Assembly (NCBI RefSeq): GCF_056712565.1
Contig: NZ_CM160072.1
Strand: one strand, 5' to 3'
DNA length: 64,000 bases
Shown piece by piece: positions 3,001 to 18,000 of the stretch. A program made the position numbers. Every line of letters begins with the position of its first letter. The stretch's first letter is position 1.

Positions 3001-6000
3001 TCAGAAATCGAAGGTGACGGATGCACGCACTTCGCGGCCGCCGCCGATAAACGCACTTGGGGAACCGTTATCGCCATCGGTACCCGATGGGAAGATAGAA
3101 GCCCAGTAATGTTTATCAAACACGTTGTTTACCACCACGCGGAAAGTGGTTGGGACGTTGCTCACTTTCGTGGTGTAACGCGTTCCCAAATCCCATGTGG
3201 TATAGCTGCTGGCGTAAGAGGTGTTGGTATCGTTCGCCGCGCGTTTGCCCGTATAATGGACGTTAGCGCTGTAAACCCATTCCGGTATGGACGGCAAACT
3301 GTATTCCGCCAACAGATTGGCCTGCACTTTCGGCACGCCGACAACCTGTTTATTGCTGGTTGAGGCATTCGCCGTATCTTTCAGTTTCGGGTCGAGGAAG
3401 GTCACGCCGCTGTAAATATTCAGCCCCTGCCACACATTCCCGGCAGCGGTTAACTCAAGGCCGTTGTTAACCTGGTTACCCTGCTCTTTATACACGTTAT
3501 CCGTATCAAGATAGGCAAACGGACGTTCCAGTCGGAACAGCGCGGCGCCTAGATTCATCTCGCCGATGTCCGATTTTAGCCCCACTTCATACTGCTTGCT
3601 GCGATACGGGTTTAGCGTTTGACCGGCATTTTTTACGCTCTCATCCGTCGGTGCGGTACCGCCCTGCTCCAGCGAATCGGCATAGCTAACGTAGGCCATT
3701 GTGTTAGGGGTAATTTTATACATCAGCGCGGCGTTCGGACTTAAACCATTTTCATCAACCTGGTTCGTTTGATTACCGTGCTTATCGTAGTTTTTAGTCT
3801 GCAGCCAGCTCTGGCTGAGATAGAACATTGCCGACCACTGCGGCGTAAATGTCACCGTATCGCCGAGCGTAACGCTCTGCTGAGTATTTACGCTGGAGCG
3901 GTATCGCGGCCCGCCGGTGCGGATTTTGCCATCGCCCTGCTCATCTATCGCATCCGGGTGATACATATTTGTTGTACCCCAGCTATAGCTGGAACCTGTT
4001 CCTTTGGCACTATAAAGCGACCAGACATATCCCGTGGTAGAAAGTGACAGATCGTGGCCGATAGAGCCGGTATCAATATGACCATTCAGCCCGGCGGTGT
4101 TGCTCAGGACGCGAAAACGTCCGGCAGCGGTGGAATCCTTCATCGAACGAGAGATATCGCCCTGATTGTTGAGTATTTTACTGGAAACACTACGCATCGC
4201 GCGGTCAGCCTGCTGCCAGCCCACGCCAGCGTTCATGGACCAGTCGTCGTTAAAGTAGTGGATCAGGCGAGTGCTGATGGTATCGGTAGTGAGGTCGTTG
4301 CCCGCAGTGCTGAGCGCCAGATTTTTGTCCTTCGGATTCGGCGCAGACGGCAGTTTGACGTTCGGCCCATAGTTAAAGCTACCGACATAGCCTTTCTGGA
4401 TAAATTCGTAATGGCTGGCGTCGAGCTGTAGCTGAGTGCCCGGCTGAATATTCCAGTCGAGCGCAACGGAAACGAGTTTGCGACGCAGCGTGCTGTCATC
4501 CACATTGCCTTCCCCTTCCTGATCAAGCAGGTTCACGCGATAGCCAAACCGTTTGTTTTCATCAAAATGGCCACCCAGATCGGCATGGCCGGTAAACGCA
4601 CTGCGGCTTTGATAGCCCAGCGTCACTTTACGCAGCGTCTCTTCGGTTGGGCGCTTCGCCACGAAATTAAACTGCCCTGCTGGGCTCGCCGGGCCGTACA
4701 GCGCGCCGGTCAAACTGTTAAGCACATCCATGCGCTCAAGCATTTCCACCGGAAACGCGGTTGTTGAAACGATATTCAGCCCGTCCAGACGGCTGTTGGC
4801 CACCACGCTGCCCTGCATCCCCCGACTTTGCGGACGCCCGACATCCATTCCACCGCGCGCCTGCATTTGCGTACTGGGAGAGTATTTCAGCATCTCGCTG
4901 ACGCTTTGCGCCTGCTGATTTTCAATCATCTCTTTAGTAACAGTGGTGCTGGAATATGGTGTTTCGATCCAGGATTTCGTTCCCAGCGGGCCGACATCTA
5001 TATCGTTCGTTTTGAAACCGGCACCGGCGGCAGAATCGGTGGTGTCGGCGGCGGTGTTGCCCGTGACAATCATTTCATCTTCAGAAGTAGACGAGGCATG
5101 AGCATGAAGCGGTATGAAAGACGCTAATGCTGGCAAAAGCGCAGCGAAAGTTATTTGAGTTTTCATGAATCACTGATCGTTATGTAAATATTTATATTAC
5201 GATCGGTGCATAGGCAAAATTATGATCCAGATCACACGTGAATGTAAGTTATTTACAAATTACGCTAACCTTCTGTCTCCGCTCTTTGCAGCATAAAAGT
5301 ATGGCGGCGCGTTGTTGAAAGCAGGAGCGGCCGGGTTGTCAGAAAGCTGGTTTGGACGCAAGTAATATATAACAACTCTGATTACCGCATACTGTCAGGA
5401 CAGTATCTACTTGAGCGTCCGCCTTTGGCACAAAGCGGACTGTCAGATTAGATTCAGACCTGTACTCATTAGCTGATACAAATCAGCCACATATACCTGC
5501 ATTCAAAATAATTTCAGAAAGATATTATCTCCGTGAATCCCCCGCCACCTTTCCGGTGCACGGGGTTTTGTCTTTTTTCACTGGGAATACATGTATGAAT
5601 CCGTCTGATGCCATTGAGGCAATTGAAAAACCGCTCTCCTCCCTGCCTTACCCGATTTCCCGTCACATCCTGGAACATCTGCGCAAACTCACCCGTCACG
5701 AACCCGTGCCTGGCATTATGGGTAAAAGCGGGGCCGGTAAATCCTCACTCTGTAATGCACTGTTTCAGGGGGAGGTCACCCCGGTCAGTGCACTCATGAC
5801 AGTGCTTCCCGGACATGCCGCCATCCATCTGATGACACGCCTGCAGGACGAACTGCGCACGGAGTCTGTCCGCACTCAGACCCGTGAACAGTTTACCGGT
5901 GCGGTGGACCGGATATTTGACACGGCGGAGAGTGTCTGCATTGCCTCTGTTGCACGCACGGTTCTGCGCGCCGTCCGTGACTCGGTGGTCTCTGTTGCCC

Positions 6001-15000: not shown

Positions 15001-18000
15001 CCGGGATTCAGCGCCTGTACCCGCACTCAGTTAATAAACAGCATCGATATCCTCCGGGCTCGCAGGGCGACCGGCCTGATGACCCGCGACAATTACAGAA
15101 CGGTAAATAACATTACCCTGGGTAAGTATCCGGAGGCGAAATGATGACACTGGAAGCCGACAGCGTTAACGTACAGGCGCTGGATATGGGGCACATTGTC
15201 GTTGACATTGATGGTGTTAATATCACTGAACTGATTAATAAGGCCGCTGAAAACGGTTATTCACTCCGCGTGGTGGATGGCCGTGACTCTACCGAAACAC
15301 CGGCAACTTATGCCAGCCCTCACCAGTTGCTGTAAGACAATGCAGTGATACAGGGTATAGTGCCATTAACCACAGAAACAGCACTGTTGTCCTGTATTAA
15401 GCAGGCAAGAGAAGATGTCCTTACCCTGCGCCATCTGCAGCTTCTGCACCAGAACCGGTGAATCTCACTCAACAGGCTTCATTTCCCCTGACGCCAGCCT
15501 GAATACAGCTGGCGTTTTCATTTATAAACAGAAAGGAAAACCGATAATAATGGAATGGACGCCCCGACCATGAAGCAACGGTAGGATATTACTGATAAAC
15601 CTTCCAGTGGAGGTGCGTTATGGCCGTTTTAACGATTAGCATTGACCTGACAAAAAATGAATTCCAAATCCACGGTCTGGGTAGGAACAGAAAAATCTAA
15701 GCTCAGAAAACGGATTAAAGTAAGCGTCAACGGAGCACCGTATTGACGCTTATTTATTGGTGAGAACTACGTTCCATGGCAGGAGTTCGTCAACACGGTT
15801 GGAGGGCCATTCCGGCAGTATGCTCAGAATATGGCGCAGATACGCTTCCGGATCGATACCGTTCAGACGGCAGGTGCCTGCTTTTCCGGCAACAAGCAGG
15901 AATCTCAGCGCTGAAGCAGGAATTAGAGGTAAAAACGCCCTACCGGGCCATGAATCACCCGGTCATTGGAGTAGTAACCAAAGCAGATTTAGCCAGCATG
16001 GAACAAATATCTTTGGTGAAAAGTTGGTTACGGGAAGCTGGAGCGCACAACGTGTTAGTAACCAGTGCAGTTAATAACAATGGAGTTACAGAACTTTTTG
16101 CCTTGCTGCATACAGAAGAAGGCTGTTGTTAATTTCGATTGGTTCTCAGATGAGAATGATGACGGTGATACACAGATAAGAATCAATGAGCAATGAGGGT
16201 TGCCGGGCAACCCTCATTGAATAAAACGGGAATTACTTCGCTTCGCCGTTTTTCATTTCGCCCATAGCTTTCAGCTTTTTGGAGATATCGCGGCGTTCTT
16301 TGGAGAGCTCGGCATTTTTGATGATGTAATCGTCAACGCGATCTTCATAGTCACCTTTCATGCTGGCGATGATGCCCTGGATTGCTTCAACGCTCATCCC
16401 TGGCTTGATGTAATCGCTCAGGTTGTCCAGCAACAGGACGCGCTTCTGGTTGTCACGGATCTTTTTCTCAACGTCCTGAATTTCACGTTGCAGTTTGTTC
16501 TTACGACGGAACAGACGAACAAATTCCAGTACGTCCTGGAATGAAGGCTTGGTAGTTTCCATTTTTATACCCCTGATAATGTGAGAGTCGGATTCGTTTA
16601 AGCAACCGCTATTCGTTAGGGCCAACATTACTCATAGCTGCCGCAGATGACAATGCTTTTATCCCTTTTCACTATCATACCCTTTATCCTTGCTGAATCG
16701 AAGCAGCAGCAAGATGATTCTGAAGTTCAGGAATTATTTGCGCAAGGCCCGGCAAATCAGATTCGATAGCAACTCAAGCTGATGTGCCGTTTCCATGTTC
16801 AGCCACACATAACCATAGATTGGTGTTTCCACGACTTTCAGATCATGGTGGTTATCGAGCAACTGACGCAGCTCTTCCACAGCATCGTTCAATTTTTCCG
16901 TATTGGCAAAAACCGGCTGCGGATTACCTTCGTACAGCGCATGAACAAGGCTCAGCAGTATTTGCTGCATCATGTGCTGGGTATCACGAAGTTTTTGCGC
17001 GTTCAATAACACGAAATGGCTGGGGCGCGTGGCCCAGTATGCATTGATTTGCAACTCCAGCATACAAACCAGATTGCGATTAATGGTCTGGATACCTTCA
17101 TATATCGATTTGGGAATACGGGTTTCTTTGCTGGCGGGCGCAATCAGCCCACGCATTTTCACGGCATCGGTCAGCAGTTTTTGTAGATGGCTTTCCAGAC
17201 GTGGGCGTTCGAGTAAGTTCGGTGAGAATGCAGATTGATAGACCCGATTATACTCGGTCAGACTTTTCGCCAGTTGAATGCGCCAGTGGATGAACGCCCG
17301 TTGTGGCCAGATACCGGTAAACAACATTGCCAGTAAAGAGCCGAGGATCACATCGCCGCTTCGCCATAACGCCGTATCAATTTCACCTGTCGGGGAACCC
17401 ACAACAATTGCCAGCGTCACCCCAATCAATAATCCTTGATACGGTTTCTTGCCCAGCGCCAGCCAACCGCAAAGAAACATCGCCGCCGCGCACCAGACTA
17501 ACATCAGCGGTAACGAAATTAACTCCAGTTGCAGAGCGATAAGACCTAAAATCGAACCCAACACCGTACCGCCAATACGTTCGAAGGCACGAGGGACAAC
17601 GTTCCCCCAGAACGAGATTGGCCCCATAATCACCACCATGGTGACCAGCGGCCAGGTGCTTTCCGGGATAGTAAACAGGCGGATAATGAGAAAAGTGAGC
17701 AGGAATGCCAGCGCGACCCGAGTACCATGCACAATGCGGTAATGGCGGTATACCCGGATTTCAAACGGGCTTAATGACTTATCGGCACGCACGCAGAAAC
17801 TCCGTAATGAAGATTAAAAGCGCTCATAACACATCTGTCGGCCAGAAGGCGCGCCTCTGAGTTATCCGACGGACATACCGGGAACAGTGTAATTTCCCGG
17901 CAGGAGCGAAAAATTTGAAAGGCGCATCTTACTCTTTTCGCTTTCAAAAAAAGAGTGGTCTTCGCGTCAACACACCGCCCTGAGATGAATTAGTGATGTT

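Follow-up and report, generated by a model that had tools for sequence, protein, structure and literature searches.

Expression of the autotransporter gene agn43 (flu) of Escherichia coli is reportedly phase variable under the control of Dam and OxyR, a mechanism said to go back to Haagmans and van der Woude in 2000 and Wallecha in 2002. Transcription from the agn43 promoter yields a polycistronic agn43-yeeR-irmA mRNA, whose repression is lifted in oxyR mutants, and a large deletion disrupts yeeR in strain MG1655 (PMC4807369). We compared these systems with a 64-kb stretch of E. coli DNA (hereafter, the window) that is 100% identical to CFT073/Nissle 1917. The explanation that we consider probable as a whole is that the segment studied forms the right-hand module of a ~48-kb genomic island, located between cobU and yeeX in B2-type E. 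coli, and that this modular island carries an agn43-type switch at the head of a dynamin operon, which would be phase variable. A sequence-only reading had listed the gene content and order of positions 5595 to 15335, and Pfam searches recovered both as listed (Table 1).

Table 1. Features of the island segment and its right boundary in window coordinates
Feature	Coordinates	Strand	Evidence
yeeP-type GTPase remnant, 144 aa, P-loop kept	5595-6029	+	weak P-loop Pfam matches only; translation
Putative sigma-70 promoter, -35 TTGCGT (6117-6122), 17-bp spacer, -10 TAGAAT (6140-6145)	6117-6145	+	alignments
OxyR-consensus-like 37-mer ATCGATCGTTACTAT-N7-ATCGTTATAAACGAT with three GATC	6148-6184	.	consensus scan
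Dynamin-like GTPase, 794 aa	6247-8631	+	Pfam Dynamin_N 2e-18
YjcZ/RdcB-family protein, 301 aa	8628-9533	+	Pfam YjcZ 2e-71
Patatin-like phospholipase, 356 aa	9530-10600	+	Pfam Patatin 4e-25; translation
Short terminator-like hairpin directly 3′ of patatin	10620-10636	+	terminator scan
Variable sub-cassette, two small secreted-protein genes	10686-11904	+	blastn breakpoints 10685, 11905
hypA, 160-aa secreted protein	10931-11413	+	translation; homologue starts
hypB, 136-aa secreted protein, signal peptide	11429-11839	+	translation
DUF905 gene 3′ remnant	11905-11959	+	alignment to L006 DUF905 gene
Strong intrinsic-terminator-like hairpin between DUF905 remnant and DUF932	11981-12010	+	terminator scan, sequence
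DUF932 protein	12060-12881	+	Pfam 8e-49
Antirestriction protein, KlcA/ArdB type	12972-13457	+	Pfam Antirestrict 9e-36
RadC-like JAB protein YeeS	13473-13949	+	Pfam RadC 4e-44
YeeT (DUF987)	14018-14239	+	Pfam 2e-39
CbeA antitoxin	14313-14681	+	Pfam 5e-54
CbtA toxin	14770-15144	+	Pfam 1e-57
YeeW, DUF5983 N-terminal fragment	15141-15335	+	Pfam 2e-29
Island debris	15336-15949	.	RefSeq annotation of CFT073
DUF957 remnant, within island debris	15369-15461		RefSeq annotation of CFT073
Transposase remnant, within island debris	15750-15887	-	RefSeq annotation of CFT073
pduV remnant (K-12 yoeF)	15950-16132	+	Pfam PduV-EutP

Alignment places the locus as the positional homologue of K-12 CP4-44 at the cobU...yeeX site, in agreement with the homology assumed earlier. 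The two elements share their right flank (the yoeF/pduV remnant, yeeX/tmaR, yeeA, sbmC, and dacD) and a right end inside the pduV remnant; by blastn they are 92% identical over the 3′ end of yeeP and 98% identical from inside yeeS onward, with values of 95 to 99% across yeeS through yeeW and the flank. The interval from 6033 to 13496 is nonhomologous to K-12, and the DUF932 and antirestriction genes therefore also fall within it; homology restarts at 13497, inside yeeS. Within this interval K-12 lacks the switch allele, the dynamin operon, hypA/hypB, the DUF905 remnant, DUF932, and the antirestriction gene, and in their place has flu together with a shortened yeeR that is fused to yeeS. The CFT073 island also differs from CP4-44 in its size of ~48 kb, its iron-uptake genes, and its IS debris. 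The K-12 gene order had been given correctly (yeeP-flu-yeeR-yeeS-yeeT-cbeA-cbtA-yeeW), with isrC placed between yeeP and flu. Its use as the reference state did not survive the comparison: the cobU-yeeX island is the intact counterpart of this cryptic element, and CP4-44 derives from the yeeP-agn43-yeeR-irmA type by a deletion that runs from yeeR 3′ into yeeS 5′.

The absence of a tRNA and an integrase, noted earlier for the window, was borne out for tRNA across the 64 kb and for integrase anywhere from cobU to yeeX in CFT073. Genomes without the island match the window only from ~15950, which is the right island end, and in strain EC444 the empty site has an intact pdu operon whose last gene, pduV, directly adjoins tmaR; the island has replaced the cbi/pdu region next to yeeX. 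Positions 15336 to 15949 are 99.7% identical in all island-bearing genomes compared regardless of cargo, which speaks for a single ancestral insertion whose interior was later replaced. The frame, with a yeeP-type GTPase gene on the left and the DUF905/DUF932, antirestriction, RadC, YeeT, CbeA/CbtA, and YeeW genes on the right, is common to many tRNA-associated E. coli islands, and CP4-57 carries the GTPase/DUF932/antirestriction/RadC/TA frame that had been attributed to it. Window positions 1 to 5440 match the PAI-aspV copy of the same genome at 99.95% identity, with adjoining blocks at 80 to 96%, which points to recombination between islands. Compared with intact homologues of 290 aa, the yeeP remnant has lost ~438 nt from its interior without a change of frame (junction 5783-5790), and blastn alignments to the intact homologues in loci L003, L004, L006, and L009 split at 5790/5783.

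At the same locus, L006 reads yeeP-agn43-yeeR (838 aa)-irmA-DUF905-DUF932, and two alternative cargos therefore occupy one frame. To this extent the cargo exchange proposed in the sequence-only reading stands. By BLAST coverage thresholds, which define the classes here in place of full per-genome typing on a phylogeny, the dynamin-type cargo is found at this locus in 1,889 of 5,426 complete genomes (about a third), the yeeP-switch-dynamin junction in 1,938, and an Ag43/Cah gene directly upstream of the dynamin operon in 635. Because the last group has both in tandem, Ag43 and the dynamin operon do not exclude each other from the slot, and that part of the proposal falls. The choice downstream of the switch or autotransporter is instead between yeeR-irmA and dynamin-RdcB-patatin. 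In 7/7 loci examined, the dynamin operon is flanked on one side by a yeeP-type gene, or by the position from which an IS has deleted it, and on the other by DUF932. Cargo and frame also occur together at four other chromosomal sites (a tRNA-Ile/mug island, PAI-aspV, a tRNA-Ser island, and MP1 island 8) and in E. albertii; occurrence at unrelated loci without the frame, which had been named as counterevidence, was not seen. In O157:H7 and AR_0011 the dynamin type is present in derivatives truncated by IS elements.

In the 211 bp downstream of yeeP, the promoter geometry of agn43 is preserved (-35, 17 bp, TAGAAT); it is identical to that of K-12, where the region reads TTGTCC-17-TAGAAT with GATC-I 5 nt past the -10 hexamer. 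The 37-mer that follows, with GATC at 6151, 6169, and 6182, is the best OxyR-consensus match on both strands of the 64 kb (16/20, versus 14/20 for the K-12 agn43 site scored in the same register) and, judged by its sequence, the positional homologue of the operator behind Dam/OxyR phase variation of agn43. The three GATC are kept in the window, L004, L008, L009, L011, L003 (cah), and K-12/L006 (flu). They are spaced 18/13 nt in the window and 19/13 nt in K-12, and the GATC-I to GATC-II distance of 18 rather than 19 nt means that the operators are not identical. We predict promoter function at 6117-6145, a candidate that was not listed by a generic promoter scan of the window, and both OxyR binding and Dam dependence at 6148-6184; a leader of 50 to 60 nt is all that separates the promoter from the dynamin operon.

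Retention of regulatory DNA upon cargo exchange, as suggested earlier, is seen in the promoter geometry and the three-GATC/OxyR-like operator and not in the alleles themselves, which are only 59 to 63% identical. The flu-, cah-, and dynamin-type upstream regions form three allele classes, and homology between them breaks directly past the yeeP stop codon. Because the three are equally diverged, the association with the dynamin operon is old and not an accident of recent deletion.

These data bear on a reading of simple decay without exchange. Its ancestor would be yeeP-switch-Ag43-dynamin-RdcB-patatin-...-DUF932 and the present types deletion products, CFT073 having lost the autotransporter and K-12 other parts, with the switch before dynamin a by-product. 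Such a history would fit the tandem Ag43/Cah-dynamin arrangement of the 635 genomes, the frequent IS-mediated and other deletions at the locus, and the weak similarity of leader 6197-6245 to the cah 3′ end and downstream region. We nevertheless judge it unlikely. The unrelated yeeR-irmA and dynamin-RdcB-patatin cargos share one position and no locus with both was seen, so that at least one replacement is needed. Furthermore, the dynamin-type switch is about equally distant from the cah type (62.6% identity) and the flu type (59%) and forms a separate class that is conserved in E. albertii and at four E. coli sites, which rules out that it was recently derived by deletion from a known type-B locus, and the identity pattern along the frame blocks is mosaic.

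Conservation within the dynamin type addresses a different doubt, that the three-GATC element is a nonfunctional agn43 regulatory relic and the operon is constitutive or answers to another signal, e.g., prophage-dependent induction. The -35 hexamer is indeed weak (3/6), and phase variation of the dynamin operon is itself predicted from sequence. A relic should decay, however, and in five diverged type-A copies, including E. albertii, both hexamers, all GATC, and almost every OxyR-consensus position stay the same while 23 of 219 intergenic positions differ and the spacer varies. Among four of the copies, all variable columns in the OxyR site (4/4) sit on unspecified consensus positions, and adding the MP1 copy brings one change at a specified position. 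Since the site also fits the consensus better than the proven agn43 operator and is kept in another species, we find the relic reading doubtful. Expression data from MP1 enter on both sides. No other unit was up-regulated as strongly as its five-gene cluster SID94_19700-19720 in a lysogen versus its isogenic nonlysogen, whatever the medium, in a single such pair and with multi-mapping affecting the second copy (PMC12922286). In our analysis this cluster comprises dynamin-RdcB-patatin and two small genes, preceded by a yeeP gene and by the three-GATC switch found in the window. The authors read this as dedicated up-regulation in lysogens by the prophage (PMC12922286), and it could be true prophage regulation. 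A phase switch would yield such an all-or-none difference between clonal derivatives, for which PMC3764049 offers a comparison case, and the MP1 data are therefore circumstantial support for the switch.

We propose that the dynamin operon is under epigenetic phase variation. The two sides of the frame would enclose a single transcription unit that starts from an agn43-type promoter with three Dam sites inside an OxyR site, followed in modular order by an optional Ag43/Cah autotransporter gene, which may have been either lost or inserted, by either yeeR-irmA or the genes for the dynamin-like GTPase, YjcZ/RdcB-like protein, and patatin phospholipase, and by small secreted-protein genes, the set of which varies. 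By analogy with agn43, OxyR on the unmethylated operator would block transcription and shield the GATCs from Dam (OFF), and methylated GATCs would exclude OxyR (ON), resulting in heritable, reversible expression of dynamin-RdcB-patatin-hypA-hypB. Homologous recombination between the paralogous frames of separate islands, together with IS-mediated deletions, may generate the variants. The arrangement of this switch and a dynamin/patatin operon has apparently not been described as phase variable.

The five genes are presumably cotranscribed; given the terminator-like hairpin after patatin, hypA and hypB may not always be. This hairpin also delimits the block in common with loci lacking the next two genes, and homology to L003, L008, L009, and L011 stops at 10681-10685 (blastn). 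The single swapped slot described earlier thus needs dividing, with the two secreted-protein genes a separate variable sub-cassette that has its own breakpoints; L003 lacks it, PAI-aspV (L008) has other small genes in its place, and E. albertii and MP1 carry only part of it. HypA has the signal peptide MKRLHTLMLFLAVLFTGFNVEA and a conserved C-K-x-x-x-C-G-W loop. Its start is most likely 10931 and not 10628 or 10736 (the RefSeq start), because diverged homologues are 160 to 161 aa and begin at that Met. The earlier label "Ivy-like" found only subthreshold matches (Pfam Ivy, E = 0.067, 13.8 bits versus a cutoff of 21; NCBIfam, E = 0.06) and no structural confirmation in an unreliable AlphaFold model (pLDDT 46); HypA is possibly Ivy-like. 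HypB matches no family in Pfam, NCBIfam, or PADLOC and has no similarity to IrmA. The conserved frame resumes at 11905, which aligns to L006 position 14001 inside the DUF905 gene (13822-14055) and from which thousands of genomes match onward (query position 5866) under the label "DUF905 family protein." The terminator that the sequence-only reading called at 11983-12014 is real and has a 13-bp stem with 7 GC pairs and a T-run.

The dynamin-like GTPase is a full-length paralogue of CrfC/YjdA/RdcA (about 30% identity; PMC12922286), and its stop codon is overlapped by the start of the YjcZ/RdcB gene, whose product is named "diguanylate cyclase regulator RdcB family protein" in RefSeq. The patatin translation has intact oxyanion GGG, GASIG serine, and DGG aspartate motifs and no signal peptide. 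The operon perhaps serves membrane remodelling or phage defence, and the defence or virulence role that the sequence-only reading considered for the cargo is likewise only a possibility. A dedicated dynamin-type anti-phage system (Eleos/LeoA-LeoBC) in a defence-island hotspot is nonetheless improbable in our estimate. A defence role was suggested by the authors of PMC12922286, and an antirestriction gene and a toxin-antitoxin pair are neighbours. The PADLOC matches, to LeoBC (4e-6, the only one for the GTPase) and to phospholipase effectors, are weak and far below family level; the partner is of the YjcZ/RdcB family and not LeoBC, the LeoA/LeoBC pair is absent, and no phage phenotype of the operon is known. 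The secreted proteins and the adhesin operon alongside fit a cell-envelope/host-interaction role equally well.

Among known systems, agn43-yeeR-irmA (Moriel 2016, PMC4807369) shares with the window its position after yeeP, the promoter geometry, three GATC in an OxyR-type site, and a polycistronic unit that ends before DUF905/DUF932 with small secreted proteins distal. The driven genes are unrelated (in the window, a dynamin-like GTPase, a YjcZ-like protein, patatin, and two other secreted proteins), the upstream regions are only about 59 to 63% identical, and the leader of 50 to 60 nt, versus ~190 to 228 nt in agn43, has no isrC-like element or Rfam match. Phase variation is established for agn43 and predicted for the dynamin operon. 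The core-genome pair RdcA (YjdA/CrfC)-RdcB (YjcZ) has the same order of a dynamin-like GTPase and a YjcZ-family protein, but the window gene is paralogous rather than orthologous (its full-length match to NCBIfam CrfC NF007368 scores 550 bits, below the equivalog cutoff of 1146), and its pair is island borne, translationally coupled to patatin, and placed behind a phase-switch-like promoter. LeoABC of ETEC, LeoA/LeoBC of Eleos, and DynA of Bacillus are likewise bacterial dynamin-like systems of defence or vesiculation, with a mobile island and other defence-related genes nearby as further likenesses; the LeoBC profile match is marginal, and the partner proteins differ. The Salmonella gtr operons and opvAB reportedly also have GATC in OxyR half-sites that control horizontally acquired, envelope-related operons (PMC2909390, PMC4856963), but with other site numbers and arrangements and without homology, whereas the window element is a true homologue of the agn43 region.

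The segment from 5200 to 16200 matches E. coli CFT073, Nissle 1917, and further B2 strains at 100% identity, and in CFT073 it lies inside an island of ∼48 kb between cobU and tmaR/yeeX that is packed with IS debris. No integrase was found in the CFT073 island and no tRNA in the 64-kb window. Pfam searches upheld every gene, its order, and its coordinates as given by an earlier, sequence-only reading of this DNA, which had described a CP4-44-type island carrying a dynamin-patatin operon as swapped cargo. Translation indicated intact catalytic motifs in the patatin protein and a signal peptide in both small open reading frames, hypA and hypB. 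The conserved hypA protein appears to be a 160-aa form starting at 10931, and RefSeq, which begins this first small gene at 10736 (225 aa; region 10628-11413), probably places the start too far upstream, because diverged homologues are 160 to 161 aa long and begin at the Met of 10931, the first residue of a canonical signal peptide.

Features of the yeeP-to-yeeS interval and its right end (window coordinates)
Feature	Position	Description
yeeP remnant	5595-6029	P-loop kept; internal deletion, in frame, compared with intact homologues of 290 aa
Putative promoter, -35	6117-6122	TTGCGT; 17-bp spacer
Putative promoter, -10	6140-6145	TAGAAT
Match to OxyR consensus	6148-6184	Overlaps all three GATC sites; sequence match only
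GATC sites	6151, 6169, 6182	agn43-like spacing, immediately past the -10
Dynamin-like GTPase gene	6247-8631	
YjcZ/RdcB-family gene	8628-9533	
Patatin gene	9530-10600	
Terminator-like hairpin	10620-10636	Short; just ahead of the hypA-hypB sub-cassette
hypA-hypB sub-cassette	10685, 11905	Second breakpoint pair
Strong terminator	11981-12010	After the DUF905 remnant
Island right end	15336-15949	99.7% identical in every island-bearing genome compared, regardless of cargo
yoeF	15950-16132	3′ remnant of pduV

Positional homology to K-12 CP4-44 was confirmed by an insertion between cobU and yeeX (tmaR), beside the pduV remnant yoeF, with a right flank 98% identical to K-12, where the order at the same site is yeeP-isrC-flu-yeeR-yeeS-yeeT-cbeA-cbtA-yeeW-yoeF-yeeX. 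In blastn comparisons, the 3′ end of yeeP (5783-6032) matches K-12 at 92%, homology resumes at 13497, 24 nt inside yeeS, and continues at 98%, and the genes from yeeS to yeeW are 95 to 99% identical to their K-12 counterparts. The differing interval is therefore 6033-13496, including DUF932 and the antirestriction gene; it has no K-12 homology, and the flu (agn43) and yeeR genes that K-12 carries between yeeP and yeeS are missing here. YeeR was ruled out as a remnant of the dynamin, as the two proteins share no similarity. A flu-type cargo with a complete frame (GTPase-agn43-YeeR [838 aa]-IrmA-IS66-DUF905-DUF932-antirestriction-yeeS and onward) occupies the same locus in another genome (L006), and the K-12 CP4-44 is thus itself a deletion derivative of a widespread modular island. 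A deletion in K-12 is likewise noted in PMC4807369.

In the island-free strain EC444 the pdu operon is uninterrupted and pduV directly adjoins tmaR, and island-free strains keep a Salmonella-like pdu operon ending beside tmaR. The CP4-44-type island therefore took the place of cbi/pdu instead of integrating at a tRNA, yoeF is what remains of pduV (7740-8183 in the EC444 locus), and the right end of the island lies at ∼15950. The DUF932 and antirestriction blocks are 83 to 90% identical irrespective of cargo. Together with the near identity of the right ends, this pattern fits one ancestral insertion that would have been followed by internal mosaic replacement. The frame of K-12 CP4-57 (L014, 5711-7487) shows an empty slot, the DUF932 gene yfjQ coming immediately after the yeeP paralogue yfjP; its variable genes sit past DUF932 and ahead of the antirestriction gene, so that the position of cargo within the frame varies among islands.

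Between cargo types, homology on the left stops 3 nt past the yeeP stop codon, and on the right the shared frame restarts at 11905, within a DUF905 gene reduced to its 3′ 55 nt. A strong terminator follows this remnant, as the sequence-only reading had proposed (11983-12014). The hypA-hypB sub-cassette has breakpoints of its own: it is missing in the L003 island, gives way to three different small genes in the pathogenicity island PAI-aspV, and is partial in E. albertii and MP1. The idea of an exchangeable cargo slot thus stands in part, recast as a modular, switch-headed operon inside a conserved island frame. Cargo variety arises via recombination between paralogous islands and via deletions, and mosaic structure is in itself ordinary for E. 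coli islands. The neighboring iron-uptake cluster at 1-5440 (a TonB-dependent receptor at 3001-5166 on the minus strand, a substrate-binding protein, a permease, and an ATPase) is 99.95% identical to a second CFT073 copy in PAI-aspV (L008, 24178-18739), with identical RefSeq protein accessions, whereas the adjoining yeeP-dynamin block is just 95.6% identical to its PAI-aspV copy. This disparity between adjacent blocks suggests that the cluster was recently duplicated or underwent gene conversion between two islands within the same genome.

Among 5,426 complete E. coli genomes, 1,889 carry the dynamin cargo at the cobU-yeeX locus (at least 80% of window positions 6040-22000 in one place); the yeeP-switch-dynamin junction is present in 1,938 of the 5,426, and the cargo alone, at a coverage of at least 80%, in 1,849. 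An Ag43/Cah gene followed directly by the dynamin operon was found in 635 of the 5,426 (O157:H7 and others), as exemplified by L003, whose island adjoins a tRNA-Ser gene and ghrA. Nearly all cargo matches are chromosomal. Further copies reside at tRNA-Ile/mug (L004), in CFT073 PAI-aspV, in "island 8" of MP1, and in E. albertii (L009). Each of the seven loci examined has the operon flanked on one side by a yeeP-type gene, or by the place where an IS deleted it, and on the other by DUF905/DUF932, so the same cargo at unrelated loci outside the yeeP/DUF932 frame, which the sequence-only reading had named as evidence against its proposal, was not seen among them. The dynamin operon belongs to the CP4-44-type island family as a regular part of it, not as free-floating cargo.

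Several copies are degraded. IS3- and IS1-mediated deletions took out yeeP and the switch, together with some or all of the dynamin operon, at the cobU-yeeX locus of O157:H7, which retains a promoterless rdcB-patatin-hypA-hypB (L012, Z1831, 5677-7755), and of AR_0011, where only a 3′ fragment of hypB is left (L013, 8288-9333). The second CFT073 dynamin gene, in PAI-aspV (L008, 11265-13662, minus strand), is annotated as frameshifted, as is the yeeP remnant there, and the only intact dynamin copy in CFT073 is apparently that of the cobU locus represented by this window.

The 211-bp region separating yeeP from the dynamin gene can be aligned with the upstream regions of K-12 flu and of cah across promoter and operator. 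A block of ∼75 nt covering the promoter and operator is alignable with the agn43 regulatory region, and identity is 59 to 63% over ∼170 nt. K-12 agn43 has TTGTCC-17-TAGAAT and GATC sites at 13318, 13337, and 13350, and in both sequences GATC-I lies 5 nt past TAGAAT. The OxyR consensus (ATAGnTnnnAnCTAT-N7-ATAGnTnnnAnCTAT) is matched at 16 of 20 specified positions, against 14 of 20 in the same register for the experimentally proven agn43 operator, and this is the single best score in the 64 kb on both strands (∼128,000 positions). Clusters of three GATC sites within 40 bp occur only three times in the window. One of them, at 29825-29842, was rejected as a switch, as it sits inside a 356-aa open reading frame (29219-30289; probably hisB by synteny with L006 and EC444) and looks like chance. 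Four GATC sites packed into 59 bp (5175, 5201, 5224, and 5230) form a second cluster in a promoter region, immediately ahead of the TonB-dependent receptor gene, which starts at 5166 on the minus strand.

Across four copies with the dynamin-type switch directly after yeeP, 18 of 219 intergenic columns vary and none falls in a GATC site; four variable columns lie within the 37-mer operator match, all at unspecified consensus positions. Adding MP1 raises the variable columns to 23, of which none is in the hexamers or GATC sites and one is at a specified position. Upstream regions of the flu, cah, and dynamin types are nearly equally diverged from one another (59 to 63%), which argues that the dynamin-type switch is an old allele class and not a recent deletion scar; for an origin of the switch-dynamin junction by deletion of cah, the leader aligns only weakly with the cah 3′ region (local alignment, score 24).

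To our knowledge, antigen 43 is the only textbook case of Dam/OxyR phase variation in E. coli. From the agn43 promoter, agn43, yeeR, and irmA are transcribed as one polycistronic mRNA, which oxyR mutants derepress (PMC4807369). Given the promoter/operator homology, the dynamin-RdcB-patatin(-hypA-hypB) unit would be governed by the same Dam/OxyR epigenetic switch, and its cotranscription with cah would be expected in the 635 tandem genomes. Such control of the dynamin/patatin operon is likely in a third of E. coli genomes. Nothing in the literature searched linked OxyR, GATC sites, or phase variation with the dynamin operon; old CFT073 locus tags, and GATC with dynamin and Dam, returned irrelevant matches only, and the name "GI-CFT073-cobU" a tool-benchmark paper only.

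A published expression difference bears on this switch. In MP1, the five-gene cluster SID94_19700-19720 was the strongest upregulated unit in the lysogen versus the nonlysogen, whatever the medium, and by its authors' account the regulation of such dynamins is as yet undescribed (PMC12922286). We identified this cluster as dynamin-RdcB-patatin plus two small genes, one of them hypA-like (L011, NZ_CP139039.1 4060001-4110000, minus strand 1483-8445), preceded by a yeeP-type gene and then the same -10 and three-GATC element. The hallmark of an agn43-type switch is heritable ON/OFF expression, locked OFF without Dam and locked ON without OxyR; for the homologous MP1 cluster, the all-or-none difference between the two isogenic strains is circumstantial evidence. 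Such a stable difference between clonal derivatives is what a phase switch would be expected to leave, and it falls short of proof. The published effect may reflect different phase states of the clones and not regulation by the prophage. More broadly, the stretch after yeeP may be a general "phase-variable expression slot" of CP4-type islands. In about one-third of E. coli (CFT073 and the probiotic Nissle 1917 included), Dam and OxyR would heritably switch on and off the dynamin-like GTPase together with the RdcB-like protein, the patatin phospholipase, and two periplasmic proteins; expression of this costly system, for membrane remodelling or an anti-phage/envelope function, would be confined to a subpopulation (bet-hedging), and the "lysogen-induced" MP1 cluster would be re-explained by clonal phase state. 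We hold this combined reading tentatively, at somewhat under an even chance.

If this switch does control the dynamin/patatin operon, five clustered genes that are common in pathogenic and probiotic strains and as yet uncharacterised would be bistable and could confound transcriptomic or phenotypic comparisons among single-colony derivatives. It would also provide the first defined regulatory input for bacterial dynamin-like systems and make the yeeP-DUF932 interval a predictable site in which to seek further phase-variable cargos. The structural result clarifies the K-12 CP4-44 as a deleted version and the place of the dynamin operon in the island family, and the probable Dam/OxyR control of that operon is the part that merits an experiment.

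A membrane-remodelling or defence role for the cargo is plausible. An Rfam scan of 5000-16400 returned nothing at an E value of ≤0.1, and the dynamin protein, searched against species-representative genomes by a method that detects close relatives only, gave only E. albertii and one distant hit. The "Ivy-like" label for hypA (Ivy, inhibitor of vertebrate lysozyme) drew two profile matches, both below threshold (Pfam PF08816, 13.8 bits against a cutoff of 21; NCBIfam, E = 0.06), and Ivy was recovered from the PDB at E = 1.2. The hypA loop reads C-K-A-N-T-C, lacking the His of the CKPHDC inhibitory loop of Ivy, and an AlphaFold model from a 12-homologue alignment is unreliable (pLDDT 46). Membership of hypA and hypB in the IrmA family (PF18673) was rejected (BLASTP E = 0.27 and 6.4; no Pfam IrmA match). 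The Eleos LeoA/LeoBC defence system was rejected as well, as PADLOC matched LeoBC alone (E = 4e-6, 24 bits, no passing stretch) and gave no match to LeoA; its phospholipase-effector matches were marginal. The patatin does not qualify as a CBASS-type effector (CapV; NF041079, 18 bits against a cutoff of 200), and the operon contains no cyclase beside it. Compared with the RdcA/RdcB (CrfC/YjdA-YjcZ) pair, the dynamin-like GTPase is a full-length paralogue of CrfC/RdcA that falls short of the equivalog cutoff (550.7 against 1146 bits), and the adjacent partner clearly belongs to the YjcZ/RdcB family (Pfam YjcZ, 240.8 bits).
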